This document shows, in pieces, positions 21,322 to 61,383 of a stretch of DNA of 61,436 nucleotides. The position numbers were made by a program, and so were the translations under genes. This DNA comes from a virus: UHGV virus genome UHGV-0213688, one strand, 5' to 3'. Below the pieces are notes generated by a model that did no database searches, was not told the origin of the DNA, and saw only the letters and a list, made by a program, of their open reading frames with translations. Position 1 is the stretch's first letter; every line of letters starts with the position of its first letter.

Positions 21322-21627
21322 CTATTTAGGCTGAATATAATTGCTTGATCCTACAAAATCAAGCGAAACATTTTCAGCTTCATAGCGTATGATTTCCTTA
21401 ACCCTTAGCTTACATTCAGTCAGAGCAGTTTCTGTATCCTGTAAACGTCGGATAATATCTCTTGTGTAAACCAAAGGAATTTTCTCAACTTCCCGACATT
21501 CCACCAGTAGATGTGCGGGTAGTCTTACCTTCACTATCTGTGGAGCTGGAGGAGGTTGAGTTTGCGTCGAGCAACCTGCGCAAATCATCAGGAATACGCT
21601 CGTTAAGATAAGCTTTGACGTCAGCAT
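21322..21627 (-). CDS. o-spanin (outer-membrane lipoprotein, Rz1-like)
   Basis: preferred ATG 21627 (GGAG upstream); N-terminus LILTSVFLMICAGCSTQTQPPPAPQ = signal + Cys + Pro-rich; starts inside the 3' end of the i-spanin gene in another frame. Confidence 0.55.
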   Translation of the reverse strand: MLTSKLILTSVFLMICAGCSTQTQPPPAPQIVKVRLPAHLLVECREVEKIPLVYTRDIIRRLQDTETALTECKLRVKEIIRYEAENVSLDFVGSSNYIQPK

Positions 21628-21961
21628 TGCTTTTCTCCAGTGTCTGCAACTTGTCCTGAAGCAACTTGTGGTTATGTTGTTCATCTTGAATTGCAGAAGT
21701 TAGTTTCTTGAAAGAGTCCGTGTCCTTCTCCCTTTGTGCAGCAAGAAATACAACAGCCTCGCCCAGCTTTGCATTGTCTTTCTCCACAACGGTTAAACGT
21801 TCTTCAGCCAAACTTAAATTTGATTTGTTAAGCTCGTTCTGTGACCACAGGTAGGCGGCCACCCCGCATAAAAACACTACCGCGCCGATCATCAAATACT
21901 CGATAAACAGACGCGGTTTAGCTTTTATGAAGCCGAAGAAGTTATTTAGAATCATTTTCAT
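21485..21961 (-). CDS. i-spanin (Rz-like)
   Basis: 158 aa; N-terminal transmembrane helix then coiled-coil; next to holin. Confidence 0.55.
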   Translation of the reverse strand: MKMILNNFFGFIKAKPRLFIEYLMIGAVVFLCGVAAYLWSQNELNKSNLSLAEERLTVVEKDNAKLGEAVVFLAAQREKDTDSFKKLTSAIQDEQHNHKLLQDKLQTLEKSNADVKAYLNERIPDDLRRLLDANSTSSSSTDSEGKTTRTSTGGMSGS

Positions 21962-22286
21962 GTTTGCAGTCCTCTGAGTCGAGTTTGATCCCTGTCCGCG
22001 ATGCTAGAAGCGACTTTAGAGCTTTTAGCGTAGCACGTGAACCCGCCCAAGCGAATAGGCCAGCAAGGCCAAAAGCGAACCAAAGGCTGATATTAAACTC
22101 CCTGTAGATCGCGTACATTATAACGCCGAAGAACGCGGCGGATAAGCCCTCAAGACATGCAATGCTTAACCGTACTTTCTTACCAGCGTCAATTGTGCGC
22201 ATGACGTAACCGAGAGCTCCCCCAATGAGGGAAATCAGAGCAAACCCCGCTAGAACTGCCCAATGTTCGTTTGATGAGTTGAACAT
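21942..22286 (-). CDS. holin (three predicted transmembrane helices)
   Basis: ORF 21942..22319; preferred ATG 22286 with GGAGG 5 nt upstream; three hydrophobic segments, charged C-terminus. Confidence 0.55.
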   Translation of the reverse strand: MFNSSNEHWAVLAGFALISLIGGALGYVMRTIDAGKKVRLSIACLEGLSAAFFGVIMYAIYREFNISLWFAFGLAGLFAWAGSRATLKALKSLLASRTGIKLDSEDCKHENDSK

Positions 22287-22322
22287 GTTCCCTCCAATAA
22301 AAAGGGGCTGACGCCCCATCAG

Positions 22323-22760
22323 TTAAATTACCATTGCAATAGCGCGGTCGATCACGTCATCAGTATAAGGCATCATGCCATTTTCATGACGAATGATTGC
22401 TTTCACCAAACCTGACATTATCGTCTTGTCGAAGACATTAATTGGATCGTTAGGTTGAACACCAATTGCTTTAGCAACAGAGCGAATATACGCTTCCGTA
22501 TCGTTTTCGTTAGGTGGTGCCCAGCGAGCGATAATTTCACGTACAGTGTCGATGTTTTTCTTACCCACATTGGGCAAGCCTTCACGTTTGGTGTAGTTTG
22601 TCAGGACTTTCGCCAGAGCGCGGATGCCGTAGATCGGTTGCGTAAATTGTGCAAAAGATTTGTCGGTCCGCTTATCAACAGGGACCAATCCCTGCCAATT
22701 ATCACCCCAGCGAATGTTACCTGGATTGTTGTTACGAATACCACGAGGTTGAAGCGCCAT
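22323..22760 (-). CDS. putative endolysin (family unassigned)
   Basis: ORF 22323..23030; preferred ATG 22760 (MALQPRGIRNNNPGNIR) with GGAGG 8 nt upstream; sits at the head of holin/spanin cassette. Confidence 0.45.
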   Translation of the reverse strand: MALQPRGIRNNNPGNIRWGDNWQGLVPVDKRTDKSFAQFTQPIYGIRALAKVLTNYTKREGLPNVGKKNIDTVREIIARWAPPNENDTEAYIRSVAKAIGVQPNDPINVFDKTIMSGLVKAIIRHENGMMPYTDDVIDRAIAMVI

Positions 22761-22842
22761 ATCGAGTTCCTCCGCTTGACATGAACCACTCAAGGGTAAC
22801 AGAGAAACTTGATACGGCGCAAGGAGAATTGATCTAAGAAGA

Positions 22843-23103
22843 TTACCCGTCAAACCACTCGCTAATGTACCAGCTAACAAGACCTTTTCCACCTTTATCG
22901 ACCCCGTAGCTGGAGTAAAAAGTGAAGTTATCGGGTTCGTGTTGCAGGATAACCATAAAGTCATGCTGAGTGCTGTCAATAATTGCAATGGCGATTTCCT
23001 CGTTATCTGTGATAAAGATTTCGCCACCAATTACAACATGCGTCCCGTGGTCAACTACCTTGCTGTGATAAGCAGGTGGGATCAGGTGACTGAATGTAGT
23101 CAT
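22843..23103 (-). CDS. hypothetical protein
   Basis: 86 aa ORF packed between HslV-like gene and lysis cassette. Confidence 0.4.
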   Translation of the reverse strand: MTTFSHLIPPAYHSKVVDHGTHVVIGGEIFITDNEEIAIAIIDSTQHDFMVILQHEPDNFTFYSSYGVDKGGKGLVSWYISEWFDG

Positions 23104-57117: not shown

Positions 57118-57395
57118 TGGAATATCTATTAGTTGTCGTTGCGCTATTTCTAATCATTGTTGTTATAATGACCGGAGATAGTAATGAGAAGGGCTTTACA
57201 GCAATGAGCAGGGCGTTATTACGCGCCCTTGCTGTAGCACTACTTGGGACCAGCTTTGCTATGGCGTTTGGGATTGTAGACATCCCTAGCACCTATTATG
57301 GCTTTGTTAAAGTTCAACACCAACTTACTTATGCTACCGTCGTCGGATTGGGTGCTGTAACACTTGCAATCCTGTCAGCTTTTCATAAGCGTTAA
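57114..57395 (+). CDS. small membrane protein
   Basis: 93 aa, three hydrophobic segments; AGGAG RBS. Confidence 0.5.
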   Translation: MMEYLLVVVALFLIIVVIMTGDSNEKGFTAMSRALLRALAVALLGTSFAMAFGIVDIPSTYYGFVKVQHQLTYATVVGLGAVTLAILSAFHKR

Positions 57396-57396
57396 A

Positions 57397-57429
57397 CAAA
57401 AAGGGGCTCTAGCGGCCCCTTTTCTCTTC
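57397..57429. terminator. bidirectional rho-independent terminator
   Basis: AAAGGGGC-TCTAGCG-GCCCCTTT with A-run upstream and T-rich run downstream; between convergent genes. Confidence 0.65.
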
Positions 57430-57633
57430 TTAGAATATACGAAAGAAAGCACCGTATGGGTATACGCCAAAAGTATTGAAAACAGGCGGTGCAAAAGCAT
57501 TTACAAACACAGGAGTTGGCGCTACTGGTTGAAAAGTTTTGCAATTACACGCTGCTTGAGCCAATTGCCCCTGAAGTATACCTGCTTGTGTTGCAGGACT
57601 GCCTAGACAGCAACGGTTAGTATTACCACACAT
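57430..57633 (-). CDS. small Cys-rich protein (67 aa)
   Basis: AAGGAGG 7 nt upstream of ATG 57633; MCGNTNRCC...CNC; last gene before terminator. Confidence 0.45.
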   Translation of the reverse strand: MCGNTNRCCLGSPATQAGILQGQLAQAACNCKTFQPVAPTPVFVNAFAPPVFNTFGVYPYGAFFRIF

Positions 57634-57644
57634 AGTAGACCTCC

Positions 57645-57929
57645 TTAAAGGTCGCTTTCGTTATCCTGCTTGGAACTGGGCTTTTCGGCTTCAATCATCC
57701 CAAGTACCGCAATAACTTTAACAGCAATACGCTGAGCCAGACTGATTTGCTGCTGTGTTAATTTTCCGGTCGACACCACAGTCATTAATCCGCTTAAGTT
57801 TCCAAGAGACTTGAAATCACTGAATGCGGATTTCATAATAGTAAGTTGATCATGACCTTCATCAGCTATAACATGAGCACGAATAGAAAGTCCTTCAACA
57901 ACTTTATCAATACCTTCATTCTTCGTCAT
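57645..57929 (-). CDS. hypothetical protein
   Basis: 94 aa ORF, overlaps upstream gene by 14 nt. Confidence 0.5.
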   Translation of the reverse strand: MTKNEGIDKVVEGLSIRAHVIADEGHDQLTIMKSAFSDFKSLGNLSGLMTVVSTGKLTQQQISLAQRIAVKVIAVLGMIEAEKPSSKQDNESDL

Positions 57930-58446
57930 TTGGTTTTACCTTCTGCTCCGGTTTCTGAGGGACCGTTTGAGCGGTCTTTGGCTGCAACACTTCCTGATCA
58001 ATCATTGGTGGCCACGGACTAATATGTTCGCGGGCTTCTACAGGTTGCTCCGGTTGCACGCCAAGAAACTTATTAATAAAATCACCTGCAAAGTCTGTAC
58101 CATCGCTGACGTAAACGTGCATACGATCAAGATCAGACTGACTAATGGAGTTTGGAGCGATCGTGATTTTAAACTGGTGGAAGCCGACATACATCACATT
58201 CACGGGTCGTTCGATAGTGCCCGGCGTAGGCGGTATCACTCCCATAATCCAACAGTAATGAACCCTTCCATCGCCCATAGGTTCACAGCCAGCATTAAGC
58301 CAGCTAACCTTCTGGTGTGGGAACATGGTAGTTGAATCGGTAGCGTCCCGACGTAACGTCCAATCAACACCGCCCATGTTGATGGAGTTTTTCGGTTTCA
58401 TCCCGTTGAACTGGGTTACGCCCATTCCTGCGTTTACGTTTTGCAT
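57916..58446 (-). CDS. hypothetical protein
   Basis: 176 aa ORF. Confidence 0.5.
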   Translation of the reverse strand: MQNVNAGMGVTQFNGMKPKNSINMGGVDWTLRRDATDSTTMFPHQKVSWLNAGCEPMGDGRVHYCWIMGVIPPTPGTIERPVNVMYVGFHQFKITIAPNSISQSDLDRMHVYVSDGTDFAGDFINKFLGVQPEQPVEAREHISPWPPMIDQEVLQPKTAQTVPQKPEQKVKPNDEE

Positions 58447-58461
58447 GTCGGCTTCCTATTC

Positions 58462-58830
58462 TTACATATCTTTCATTTTTTGAAGAGCGCAAGTACAAGC
58501 TGCGGCAAGATCAGTCAACTCTTTCATGATCCCTGCGAGGTCGCCTTCTTTCTTACACTCCATTAATTCGCGGTATTCCATTTCAACAATGGACATCATA
58601 CCGCCGGGCTTGTCGTGGTACGCCGCCCACGTATGCGGAGGTTCTTCCATCCGGTCAAGAACATTTGACATAGCTGCCATATGTTCATGATCTCGAGCAT
58701 AAGAGTGAGCATGTTTATATTCCTCTTTCTCATGTTCATGGTGGTGCTCGCCTACGCTAATGCGAGGTAAAGCAACCTTAGGCAATTTGACCCGTGGTAT
58801 TCCCATCGTTGCGATTTTAATGTGGCTCAT
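58462..58830 (-). CDS. His-rich protein, possible MazG-like NTP pyrophosphohydrolase
   Basis: AGAGGT RBS; HHHEHEKEEYKHAH stretch; EMEYRELMECKKEGD...ELTDLAAACTCAL resembles the MazG/HisE E-rich helix pair. Confidence 0.4.
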   Translation of the reverse strand: MSHIKIATMGIPRVKLPKVALPRISVGEHHHEHEKEEYKHAHSYARDHEHMAAMSNVLDRMEEPPHTWAAYHDKPGGMMSIVEMEYRELMECKKEGDLAGIMKELTDLAAACTCALQKMKDM

Positions 58831-58901
58831 GATAGTACCTCTGTTAAAAGCGCCCCAAGCGGAGGAGCGAAAGGCGCTTTAGTTTAACCACACTTCAACG
58901 A

Positions 58902-59609
58902 TTAGCAGCAGCCAGTCGGAGGAGTTGGAGGAGTTGGCAGTTTAAAGTTAACTAACTGCTCAACCTGATTGATCTTACAAGTAAGACCAGCCGTCTGTGC
59001 CAACTGGGAGTTTGCAAAGCGAGCTTCCTGCAACTGAGATTTCAGGTCACAGATCAGAACTGCTTGCGCCTGCGCGTGCTGGTCACGGATTAGCGCACGG
59101 GTAGCTTCAGCTTGACGCTCGATGTTCAGGTTGGTTTCGCAGCAACACTTCTGAGCTTCTAACTGTGCTTGGAAAGAACGGGTGATGTTAGCTGCTTCGT
59201 TGCTACACAGAGCCGCGAGCACTTGGCTGGTGCTACCCTGAATTTGAGTGTTGAGACCGGCAAAGCCCTGAACGGAAGCCAGCATGTTCTGAGTGTTCTG
59301 CTGAGTGATGCCGTTATAGGTAGAAGCAGCGGAGCGCTCAACAGTCAGGTTAGTACCGTTCTGCCCCTGAATGGTCTGAAGAGTACCGTTGTTGATAGCT
59401 TGCAGAATTGCGTTGGTGTCAACAGAAGCTTGCACTTCCACCGGACCAGCGAAGTTACCGCGACCACCCCAACCACCATTGCCGCCCCAACCGTTACCGA
59501 TCCAGGAACCAATCAAACCACCGATTGCACCACCGATACCAGCCGCACCAGCTTCACCGCCGAAACCGTCGCCACCGAGATTAGTAGGTAAAAGAGTCAT
59601 GTCAGACAT
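58902..59609 (-). CDS. glycine-rich protein with Cys-rich C-terminus
   Basis: ORF 58902..59738 begins at TTG; preferred ATG 59609 (MSDMTLLP); N-terminal GGDGFGGEAGAAGIGGAIGGLIGSWIGNGWGGNGGWGGRG; Gln/Asn/Thr-rich middle; CCCET and terminal GCC. Confidence 0.5.
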   Translation of the reverse strand: MSDMTLLPTNLGGDGFGGEAGAAGIGGAIGGLIGSWIGNGWGGNGGWGGRGNFAGPVEVQASVDTNAILQAINNGTLQTIQGQNGTNLTVERSAASTYNGITQQNTQNMLASVQGFAGLNTQIQGSTSQVLAALCSNEAANITRSFQAQLEAQKCCCETNLNIERQAEATRALIRDQHAQAQAVLICDLKSQLQEARFANSQLAQTAGLTCKINQVEQLVNFKLPTPPTPPTGCC

Positions 59610-59739
59610 AGGAAAATCTCCATATATGGATTTGTTAAGCGGATGTAACCAACTGGTTACGAAGTAAAGCATACCCCTTAACACGATTTTTACAATCATC
59701 CAAATGTAAAGATTTTGTAAATTAGGATTGACAGTCAAT

Positions 59740-59764
59740 AAAAAAGCGCGCCCGAAGACGCGCT
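59740..59764 (-). terminator. rho-independent terminator downstream of tail fibre gene (minus strand)
   Basis: minus-strand RNA forms AGCGCG-UCUUCGGG-CGCGCU followed by UUUUUU. Confidence 0.65.
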
Positions 59765-59781
59765 GTTGAAGTTAGATGTGG

Positions 59782-61383
59782 TTATGGAAGGTTAGTTTGT
59801 TGTGAACCATTCGCTTCTTTTAATGCAGCAAGTTCTGTTTCCAATTTCTCCACCTTTTCCATCAAAGCAAGAATTGCTTCATGATGCAAAGCGGCAGCAA
59901 CACCATAAGTATCTACACCCTTAACGTCGGAGATCACCTCATTACCACGTAAAGTCATGGAGCCCGCATTGAAGACAGCATCTGGGAATACTTTCTCCAC
60001 ATCCTGGGCAATGAAGCCATAGTTAACCTTAGAGTTGTCATGCTTGACACGCCACGATACACCCTTAATGGAGCGCATAGCGCCAAGAGGGTTAGGGATA
60101 CGTGTAATATCTTCCTTGATACGCTCGTCAGAAGAAGTGCTCCACCCACCCGAACATACAGCATTACCACCCTTCAAGAACTGGAAATACCTCTGAGTAT
60201 CAACACCACCAGACGAAGTGGTCATTAAGGTAATATCGCCCTTCCGTTCGGAGTAGACTCGCGCATATACTGTATCATCTGGTGAGACGAAGTCCAAAAA
60301 CCCTTCGATATCACTACCACGACCCACGATACGCATAAAACTACCCCTGGAACGTATGAGGCCAGGTACATTTAAGTCACCATCATCGCCGAAGTCAAAG
60401 TTCTGAGTAGTACCTAGAGTAGCGTTGTACACTGATACACGGGCCGCATACGTAGAACCTATCGTACCGACCATACGGAAATCTGCGGAACCATTCAACT
60501 GACTACCAACACGGTACTCACTTATAACACGGCCACCAGTAACAAATGTTGTTGCGGGCGGTAGTGTGGAATCACTGTTTATCACAGACCATGACGTATT
60601 CGCGGCAATGAACCCACCAGATGCACGTATAACCCAGACGCCGACGAAGTTGCGGCCCATAATCTCGTCAGTTGATGCTCCGTAAATTGGACTCGAGCGT
60701 GAAGCGTTAAAATTACATGTGTTATAGCGACCTGCTATTGCTTTTGTACCTCCAGGGATTGCATCACCCCCGCTATCATCAGGGAATATGCTATTGTCGG
60801 AATAAAATGCACCATGAGATGTGCCAATAGCCTGCGCGTAACTCCCACTGGAATAAGTGGTAAAATAACCTGTAATATTTGGTGCAGCTGATTCAAATAC
60901 TTGTCCGTTTGCACTACTAACGCCGCCATCACCACGACCATAAAGCGCTCTGACTGATCCTTCTTGAACACCGTTTTTATCGGGGACACGAAAAGTTGTT
61001 GCTCCGTCACCCTTAGAATATTTGCCGCGCTGGAATTTATCAGCCAGCCATTCAGAATCATCTATAGCGCCCACCATTTGAGCGTAATTCCATAATTCAG
61101 GCCAGTCAGCGCGATTAAGCAATTGACCGTCAGCGACCACTTCATACGGTTGTATATATGCACGACTATCCCGAAGATGGAAATCCCCTACCCCGTAATT
61201 CATCACCCCGTTCATTGTTGGACCAACTGTACCTGTGTTAATCAGGTTCTCTACCCAACGTTTAGTTGTTGCATCATAATCGCTAACTGGGTCCCCAGCT
61301 AAGGGTGTAGACCCAATTGGTCGAACGTTTAACCACGCAGCAGCACGGTCCGCAAGATCAGATAGGTTATTACTTTTATCCAT
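59782..61383 (-). CDS. tail fibre / tailspike protein with C-terminal intramolecular chaperone (S74-like self-cleaving) domain
   Basis: 533 aa; C-terminus SSDERIKEDITRIP...GFIAQDVEKVFPDAV... then coiled-coil ETELAALKEANG matches the endosialidase/L-shaped-fibre chaperone domain signature. Confidence 0.7.
   Translation of the reverse strand: MDKSNNLSDLADRAAAWLNVRPIGSTPLAGDPVSDYDATTKRWVENLINTGTVGPTMNGVMNYGVGDFHLRDSRAYIQPYEVVADGQLLNRADWPELWNYAQMVGAIDDSEWLADKFQRGKYSKGDGATTFRVPDKNGVQEGSVRALYGRGDGGVSSANGQVFESAAPNITGYFTTYSSGSYAQAIGTSHGAFYSDNSIFPDDSGGDAIPGGTKAIAGRYNTCNFNASRSSPIYGASTDEIMGRNFVGVWVIRASGGFIAANTSWSVINSDSTLPPATTFVTGGRVISEYRVGSQLNGSADFRMVGTIGSTYAARVSVYNATLGTTQNFDFGDDGDLNVPGLIRSRGSFMRIVGRGSDIEGFLDFVSPDDTVYARVYSERKGDITLMTTSSGGVDTQRYFQFLKGGNAVCSGGWSTSSDERIKEDITRIPNPLGAMRSIKGVSWRVKHDNSKVNYGFIAQDVEKVFPDAVFNAGSMTLRGNEVISDVKGVDTYGVAAALHHEAILALMEKVEKLETELAALKEANGSQQTNLP

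Follow-up and report, generated by a model that had tools for sequence, protein, structure and literature searches.

The nearest described concept for the locus treated here is the moron, in particular the exclusion moron of the HK97 gp15 type. The locus is a cassette of four genes, A-B-C-D, followed by a fifth gene, E, on the minus strand of UHGV virus genome UHGV-0213688, the whole 61,436 nucleotides of which are called the window below. The genes are already present in databases as hypothetical proteins, are assignable to no known system, and come closest to a moron-like unit carried by virulent phages. As in HK97 gp15-type morons, the cassette is apparently autonomous, stands at the end of a tail-gene block, is mobile and dispensable, and has a first product with a membrane-type segment (PMC3594210). 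It differs in its virulent carriers, in having four genes instead of one, and in the lack of sequence similarity to gp15. The terminators expected of a moron are clear. The promoter-like site is weak in the window (8/12 consensus matches), reaches 10/12 in T1-like versions, and is conserved in position. Presence and absence between collinear genomes are observed (Bas25, Bas23; four unrelated lineages). Temperate carriage and prophage expression are not: the cassette has no match in 5,426 complete E. coli genomes and is therefore not carried by E. coli prophages or plasmids in that collection; a prophage-borne cassette in E. coli was rejected on this ground. No description of the cassette, of its conserved regulatory design or of a cross-phylum protein family with the CCCET motif of A was found in the literature searched; a search for a glycine-zipper phage moron returned nothing relevant.

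Other described systems resemble single products of the cassette. Class II microcin precursors are smaller than about 10 kDa and carry a double-glycine leader consensus. Protein A shares with class II microcins and glycine-zipper peptides a GxxxG zipper and 50% Gly over 44 residues; it differs in its size of about 25 kDa, in the lack of a leader peptide, exporter and immunity gene, and in that its remainder is a conserved phage family. In the residues before its first GG (MSDMTLLPTNLGG; ...LLPTGG in relatives) the conserved hydrophobic and acidic positions of the leader are missing. No bacteriocin, immunity protein or exporter (ABC transporter with C39 peptidase) is matched by A-E in Pfam, NCBIfam or PADLOC.

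Inner-membrane spanins (i-spanins, Rz-like) resemble A in an N-proximal membrane-type segment followed by a long Cys-bearing helical region. Protein A differs in having no o-spanin partner (no lipobox in B-E), in lying outside the lysis cassette, which holds canonical spanins of its own (21322-23030), in having homologues in phages of monoderm hosts, and in matching no PHROG or Pfam spanin. Influenza HA2, a class I fusion protein, shares with A a Gly/Ala-rich, weakly hydrophobic segment, then GGW-type residues and a long polar helix. It supplies the top PDB matches of the A-family profile, which start at the fusion peptide and are not significant (E = 0.06-0.6); A has no heptad repeat, no C-terminal transmembrane anchor, and an acidic N-terminal extension. 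This is a resemblance, not membership. It probably explains the label 'spike protein/glycoprotein' given by depositors to a crAss-like homologue of A. The MazG/HisE superfamily resembles B, whose C-terminal ~60 residues align to AF_0060 and PRA-PH over the helices with acidic metal-binding residues. Protein B differs from that superfamily in its Pfam score below the cut-off, a long variable His-rich arm, one motif Glu that is not invariant, and its four-gene context.

Distribution and transcription signals of the cassette

The window is the genome of a Seuratvirus coliphage (Queuovirinae; CAjan/DruSM1-like). Its positions 57300-59800 are 95-98% identical to the Seuratvirus coliphages ECP2304, KS_A8, CAjan, slur01 and DruSM1. 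Gene order A-B-C-D is common to Seuratvirus, the Drexlerviridae phage PaulSarasin (Bas09), Yersinia phages vB_YenM_12/PY100 and Edwardsiella phage eiAU. All cross-lineage pairs are significant by BLASTP, with identity ranges of 34-68% (A), 30-57% (B), 37-70% (C) and 27-61% (D). Scanning of viral contigs yields 33 further loci with A at least 50% identical; A-B-C-D stand in order at 32 of them. Matches to A by tblastn occur in 220 phage records, including Seuratvirus, Nonagvirus, Sashavirus, Drexlerviridae, PY100-like Yersinia myoviruses and Edwardsiella eiAU; the copies in T5-like Epseptimavirus are decayed. All of the enterobacterial carriers that were examined closely, namely Seuratvirus, Drexlerviridae, PY100-like phages and eiAU, fall in groups that we take to be virulent. 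By these comparisons the A-B-C-D operon has moved horizontally between unrelated virulent Enterobacterales phages.

Salmonella phage polluks (T5-like; L006 3752-4342) carries a frameshifted, decayed A in which CCC has become YCC; it follows immediately on an S74-type fibre gene, and B-D are missing. Remnants of A like this one are found in many Epseptimavirus genomes. Remnants of the polluks type suggest that fibre gene and A may travel together, A decaying afterwards.

The open reading frames (ORFs) of A, B and E, which the first-pass annotation had singled out, exist on the minus strand at the positions in Table 1. Each matches a PHROG of its own, of unknown function (E = 3e-49 to 4e-130, the latter for A against phrog_9288), and each is conserved among dozens of phages. 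The ratio of nonsynonymous to synonymous substitution rates (dN/dS) against diverged relatives is 0.02-0.2 at dS 0.2-2 for all five genes. Genes A-E are under purifying selection. By PHROG matches, conservation and dN/dS the flagged ORFs are therefore real, far beyond chance. A 278-amino-acid (aa), TTG-start version of A in the ORF-finder list is artefactual; its extension runs over promoter and hairpin.

No support was obtained for the proposal that these genes are transcribed as one unit with the tail-fibre gene. A strong terminator (59764-59745), also annotated in SA80RD, stands between them and is followed by a sigma70-like site that is the putative promoter of the cassette. Counterparts of this site are present in other lineages 52-58 nt upstream of the start codon of A, e.g. 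TTGTCA-16-TAGAAT in T1-like versions. The 5' leader hairpin begins ~7 nt past the -10 element. Over 16 lineages 84% of cells in the counting alignment are paired, versus 22-34% in slid controls; five of its six pairs change on both sides, and the covariation score is reached by 0/500 shuffles. Stems elsewhere are of 5-6 bp (GTAGC/GCTAC, GTGGC/GCCAC, GTAGTC/GACTAC; in the window GTAACC/GGTTAC). Three more lineages have equivalent stems (GCGAAC/GTTCGC, CCACC/GGTGG, CCGT/ACGG), identified by eye only, as they are misaligned in the counting alignment. The hairpin is also present upstream of A in L005, L007, L008, L012, L015, L019, L023, L024, L028, L029, L031 and L036. Its role may be to stabilise the 5' end of the mRNA or to serve as a regulatory operator.

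In nearly all lineages the A-B spacer holds a GC-rich hairpin with a short U-run (AAGCGCC...GGCGCTTTT), just 5' of the B ribosome-binding site; in SA80RD it is annotated as a terminator. It is probably an attenuator that leaves A more abundant than B-D. The terminator beyond E is annotated on both strands in SA80RD. From the order terminator, sigma70-like promoter, 5' hairpin, A, attenuating terminator, B, C, D, and from the terminators, promoter-like site and hairpins themselves, we infer an autonomous operon with A in excess of B-D.

Table 1. Features of the cassette and of its surroundings in the window.
Feature	Position	Strand	Length in the four lineages (aa)	Description
Gene A	58902-59609	-	207-236	235 aa; ATG at 59609, GGAG Shine-Dalgarno 8 nt upstream
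Gene B	58462-58830	-	107-122	122 aa; variable His-rich N-terminal half, conserved C-terminal helical core, putatively MazG/HisE-like
Gene C	57916-58446	-	146-176	alpha/beta domain (residues ~20-128), then disordered Pro/Gln/acidic tail
Gene D	57645-57929	-	79-94	small protein, last conserved cassette member; 14-nt overlap with C; phrog_7239
Gene E	57430-57633	-		67-aa Cys/Pro/aromatic-rich ORFan; phrog_25697
Intrinsic terminator	59745-59764	-		directly after tail-fibre stop codon; 8-bp stem (6 GC pairs), then TTTTTATT
Sigma70-like promoter-like site	59668-59695	-		-35 TTGTAA (59695-59690), 16-nt spacer, -10 TATGCT (59673-59668)
5' leader hairpin	59645-59660	-		GTAACC-AGTT-GGTTAC
GC-rich terminator-type hairpin between A and B	58846-58880	-		AAAGCGCC...GGCGCTTTT; free energy about -19 kcal/mol
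Bidirectional terminator	57399-57423	.		10-bp stem; cassette converges there with rightward small-gene and DNA-polymerase block
Lateral tail-fibre gene	59782-61383	-		upstream context, outside cassette; C-terminal Peptidase_S74 intramolecular chaperone
Lysis cassette	21322-23030	-		complete (holin, endolysin, i-spanin, o-spanin)

Products of the genes and their relatives

Protein A is composed, in order, of an acidic N-terminal tail (MSDMTLLP), a glycine zipper, a GNGWGGNGGWGG linker, a Q/N/T-rich helical region with CCCET, and a PTPPTPPTGCC tail. Residues 12-55 include 22 Gly in 44, with a GxxxGxxxGxxxG run from residue 26; in residues 56-150 Q/N/T/S make up 46%. Cysteines are at 135, 155-157 (CCCET), 187, 211 and 234-235 (terminal GCC). 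Homologues form 169 clusters at 90% identity, none of them named. In close relatives MSDMTL.P is nearly invariant (fully invariant only M1, M4, L6 and P8), and QGFAGLN, KCCCETNLNIERQ and C187 are also conserved. The AlphaFold2 monomer is a single long helix, residues 76-223, of low confidence (pLDDT 53). No Peptidase_S74, Pfam or tail-PHROG match and no tail-fibre domain is found in A. Proteins A, C, D and E give no meaningful match to Pfam, NCBIfam, PADLOC or PDB sequences. One A-family member weakly matches Pfam 'Glycine zipper 2TM' (E = 0.004).

An exhaustive profile search with A gives 117 representatives at 50% identity, most of ~200-290 aa, the rest shorter fragments. Relatives at ~30% identity retain CCCETNRN and a GLCDGFY/QGF.G motif, and their Pro-rich tail ends in Cys clusters (GCGC, GCCGGY). 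Exactly at the position of the Gly zipper of the window they have a segment that is hydrophobic and rich in aromatic residues (e.g. MWFMWIIVLFALMGGWGG, MWFMWIIVLFALMGGWGGNW). Among 25 diverse members CCC is the sole invariant. The flank N-terminal to the membrane-type segment is always acidic, with 0-2 Lys/Arg. Distant homologues occur in Clostridium perfringens phages and in one crAss-like phage. A further 31 A loci occur in assemblies of Clostridia, Negativicutes, Treponema, Bacteroidales, Desulfovibrionaceae and Melainabacteria, mostly on contigs of metagenome-assembled genomes; the few on large contigs are probably prophages.

Distant cassettes (L042-L087; L088, Clostridium phage XP41-N3; L089, crAss-like cr116_1; L095-L125) have other partners. 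Upstream of A are a ~150-aa protein (phrog_21718), which accompanies A at 40 of 43 loci, and then a ~74-aa protein. Downstream is a ~140-aa BclA_C/C1q-like jelly-roll protein with an N-terminal Cys motif (CxCxC), or another Cys-rich beta protein; the jelly-roll is followed by a DUF7841 or rubrerythrin-like helical protein. Distant homology of B, C and D to these gut- and Clostridium-type partners was rejected (hhalign probabilities <= 2.6%). The partners being unrelated by profile-profile comparison, A alone is common to both kinds of cassette. Distant cassettes stand at the ends of late operons or beside lysis genes, except for one among the early genes of a Clostridium phage.

Protein B has 8 His in residues 27-52 (HHHEHEKEEYKHAHSYARDHEH) and an acidic helix, VEMEYRELME...KELTD. 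Its conserved core comprises P65, W68, E85, E104 and D107, then LAAAC. The arm is variable in sequence, yet rich in His/Asp/Glu in most lineages. The B profile matches PDB 2p06 (AF_0060) at E = 1.3e-4; this entry we take, from SCOP, to be a member of the all-alpha NTP-pyrophosphatase (MazG) superfamily. The match to Pfam PRA-PH (PF01503) has E = 0.018 and 15.9 bits, below the gathering cut-off of 21.3. The metal-binding acidic motif ExxE...ExxD is present as E85-YR-E88 ... E104-LT-D107. Across homologues E85 and E104 never vary; position 107 is occupied by Asp or Glu, and two lineages have Gln in place of E88. Protein B thus looks weakly but consistently MazG/HisE-like. The MazG-like character first read from the sequence stands at the level of fold and motif; the 'poly-His' stretch is better described as His-rich.

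The fold of C is modelled with confidence and has no structural match. Protein D has no meaningful match in PDB, and syntenic homologues in all four lineages. Signal peptide, hydrophobic leader and lipobox are absent from B-E.

Protein E includes 5 Cys, 7 Pro and 10 aromatic residues, and is preceded by a strong Shine-Dalgarno sequence, AAGGAGG, 6 nt before its ATG. It has just 4 clusters among 5.8 billion proteins; its dN/dS is 0.09. It is restricted to Seuratvirus-type loci, with weak partial matches elsewhere in L012 and L013 (E = 4e-5 to 2e-4). The first-pass annotation had joined A and E as a Gly-rich/Cys-rich protein pair, which does not hold: E is absent from the cassette in other lineages. 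By its distribution E is a genus-specific add-on; A and B belong to the four-gene cassette. A paralogy of E with the A C-terminus, suspected by eye, was rejected (BLASTP E = 2.4). In a diverged Seuratvirus contig (L011 7980-8183) the E N-terminus, MCGNSNCCCLGS, has a CCC triplet of its own that echoes that of A, without statistical similarity.

Among neighbouring genes, the lateral tail-fibre gene matches Pfam PF13884 (E = 1.2e-14) and tail-fibre PHROGs. In the lysis cassette the holin (21942-22319) has three hydrophobic segments, and the probable start of the endolysin is a Met inside the 22323-23030 ORF. The i-spanin (21485-21961) is overlapped by the o-spanin (21322-21684), which has the lipobox LICAGC and a Pro-rich region. 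A plus-strand ORF of 177 aa at 56148-56681 matches phrog_23744 over residues 1-97 and phrog_22730 over residues 110-177, each end to end. Its counterparts in SeppeHuegi, KurtStettler and DruSM1 are two genes of ~97 and 68-71 aa, which appear to be fused in the window.

Dispensability and possible function

The cassette is dispensable for plaque formation on laboratory E. coli, as seen from natural deletions and a knockout set. Bas24 has an in-frame stop codon in A. Missing are the end of A and all of B-E in Bas25, the end of A, all of B and most of C in Bas23, and the start of A in PLYYY01; the losses in Bas25 and Bas23 sit in otherwise collinear Seuratvirus genomes. Bas22 (KurtStettler; L002 5599-7131) has an in-frame deletion by which A residues 19-235 are attached to the Peptidase_S74 chaperone domain from another, second fibre protein. 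Its product is 510 aa long, the label 'putative lateral tail fiber chaperone' stems from this fusion, and S74 self-cleavage would release a chaperone-A chimera. Deletions of A, B, C, D and E were all obtained in the DruSM1 knockout library (Table S1 of 10.1101/2024.04.14.589459); deletion primers map ORF25-29 of that paper to A-E. The operon is dispensable in the laboratory yet under purifying selection, and is thus still functional in nature.

The reading we tentatively prefer, and hold at somewhat less than even confidence, is that the cassette conditions or protects the envelope of the infected cell, with A as a membrane-associated, Cys-locked oligomer and B-D as cytoplasmic partners. Protein A would be the abundant core component. 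Its glycine-zipper segment would insert into or associate with the cytoplasmic membrane of the infected cell, as the hydrophobic segment of distant relatives suggests. Its long Q/N/T-rich helical region would oligomerise, and the oligomer would be locked via the invariant CCC and the Pro-rich/Cys tail, by disulfides or bound metal. Protein B would contribute a MazG fold with a His-rich, probably metal-binding arm. Together with C, of unmatched fold, and D, it would serve as a cytoplasmic partner or maturation factor of A, the three having no signal peptides and presumably being made in smaller amounts. Exclusion of competing phages, or countering of an envelope-linked host response, would be examples of the role. 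Most likely the module is neither a secreted toxin nor an essential part of the virion, nor does it act as a stand-alone nucleotide-pool enzyme. The envelope reading is supported by the position of the cassette outside the structural module in PY100 and by the complete lysis set elsewhere in the window.

Several observations weigh against this reading. The helical region of A has no heptad, that is, no 3.5-residue hydrophobic periodicity; a coiled coil was rejected as unproven on this ground, and with the poor AlphaFold2 model the oligomerisation of A is a guess. The Gly zipper is weakly hydrophobic (19-residue Kyte-Doolittle mean of 1.27 versus 2.05 for the holin and 2.25 for the i-spanin), so that membrane insertion of A is drawn from homology and not predicted from its own sequence. 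No DruSM1 A-E mutant is listed with altered sensitivity to the defence systems tested (10.1101/2024.04.14.589459). The same Table S1 also has DNA polymerase, its processivity factor and tape measure among the deletions obtained (10.1101/2024.04.14.589459), which makes the DruSM1 'viable' or 'non-essential' calls imperfect, supporting evidence only. Two further observations would fit a virion fibre equally: the cassette lies directly 3' of tail or tail-fibre genes in three of four enterobacterial lineages (Seuratvirus, Drexlerviridae, eiAU), of the S74 type in the fibre case, and a BclA_C/C1q-like protein follows A in distant relatives.

An accessory virion fibre or decoration is the rival that survives best, and is unlikely. 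The papers on Seuratvirus comparative genomics and on phage Vid5 offer no usable virion proteomics. Protein A would then be a trimeric fibre in which PTPPTPPTGCC and CCC form interchain cystine knots after lysis, with B-D as assembly factors or distal head. As with T4 whiskers, phi29 head fibres and lambda side tail fibres, the phage would not depend on such a fibre. The (Pro)n-Gly-Cys-Cys motif resembles the collagen III cystine knot. Besides the two observations just given, this explanation is favoured by the decayed A copies behind the S74-type fibre gene in T5-like phages, by the character of the locus as a recombination and deletion hot spot, as fibre loci are, by the Cys motif of the jelly-roll proteins, by the lack of a signal peptide in all of the proteins, and by the A > B-D design, which suits a major subunit with assembly factors. 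It is opposed by PY100-like phages, in which the cassette is surrounded by small non-structural genes and is ~10 kb away from the structural module (ORF29-32 in the PY100 record, named just hypothetical), and by the Clostridium phage in which it adjoins antirepressor and Gam/Erf genes. Also opposed to it are the lack of tail or head PHROG and Pfam matches in A, B and D, a hydrophobic membrane-type segment, unusual for a fibre, and a sigma70-type promoter-like site of its own behind a terminator. Proteins A-D are strongly conserved across differing hosts and receptors, unlike fibre tips. Being 40-70% identical across phages with different receptor-binding proteins and hosts, they also make the receptor-interaction role once suggested for the flagged genes unlikely; the remark that the flagged genes have no obvious virion role was borne out, none being recognisable.

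Protein B could instead be an independent MazG-type NTP pyrophosphohydrolase that alters the pools of dNTPs, (p)ppGpp or signalling nucleotides, and its neighbours would then be unrelated to this activity. This is improbable. The profile matches to 2p06 and PRA-PH and the acidic motif with its two invariant Glu would fit an enzyme, as does the name 'putative pyrophosphatase' given by the BASEL annotators. Set against this are the variable E88, the Pfam score under threshold, and the mere ~60 residues that resemble the fold. At the loci examined B is present only within the A-B-C-D cassette, in strict order. The DruSM1 B deletion has no defence phenotype (10.1101/2024.04.14.589459). The cassette is also found in phages without deazaguanine DNA modification and is thus not tied to that pathway.

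Still less probable is a lysis or membrane-fusion accessory, in which A would be spanin-, holin- or fusion-protein-like and would act late in infection, perturbing or fusing membranes by means of its fusion-peptide-like Gly-rich segment and its helical stalk. The HA2 matches, although non-significant, and the depositors' 'spike protein/glycoprotein' label point this way, as does the position of the cassette after holin and endolysin genes in a Clostridia metagenome-assembled genome. A Dialister prophage has it in the interval from a T7-type tail-fibre gene to the large terminase gene, where T7-like phages carry lysis genes. Against this, the window already has its complete lysis cassette, on which ground A was rejected as holin or spanin of this phage; no lipoprotein partner is adjacent, heptad periodicity is lacking, the A family occurs in phages of monoderm Clostridium, where spanins have no role, and natural deletion variants still plaque.

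The bacteriocin or toxin analogy of the first-pass annotation, with A as a glycine-rich bacteriocin-like toxin and Cys-rich E as its partner, is very improbable and was given up: the Gly-rich, GxxxG-rich composition of A recalls class II microcins, but its 235 aa are far above their size, its N-terminus MSDMTLLPTxGG misfits the double-glycine leader consensus, exporter and immunity matches are lacking, E is missing from most cassettes and dissimilar to A, and in phages of many phyla a hydrophobic, membrane-type segment aligns with and replaces the Gly zipper.

The CCCET family and its meaning

A broader proposal, which we regard as rather unlikely at present, is that the CCCET family is a new, phylum-spanning class of phage membrane-inserting oligomers with lineage-specific partners, an envelope-acting machine that is neither a lysis system nor a known exclusion system. 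Each member would combine a segment of the fusion-peptide-like or glycine-zipper kind with a long polar helix and with a lock formed by the invariant triple cysteine. The partners would be a MazG-fold, an unmatched-fold and a small protein in enterobacterial phages, and a C1q/BclA-like jelly roll with a DUF7841 or rubrerythrin-like protein in phages of gut Firmicutes, crAss-like phages and others.

Bacteriocin, 'tail fiber chaperone' and 'sugar-binding protein' are labels to be avoided for these genes. The system is tractable, with BASEL phages that have natural deletions and with the existing DruSM1 knockouts. Lineages with almost nothing else in common retain the same operon at 40-70% protein identity, and with it the position of the promoter, the leader hairpin and the internal terminator; the A family spans phages of Clostridia, Negativicutes, Bacteroidales/crAss and spirochaetes. 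This breadth points to a widely useful function that laboratory plaque assays miss.

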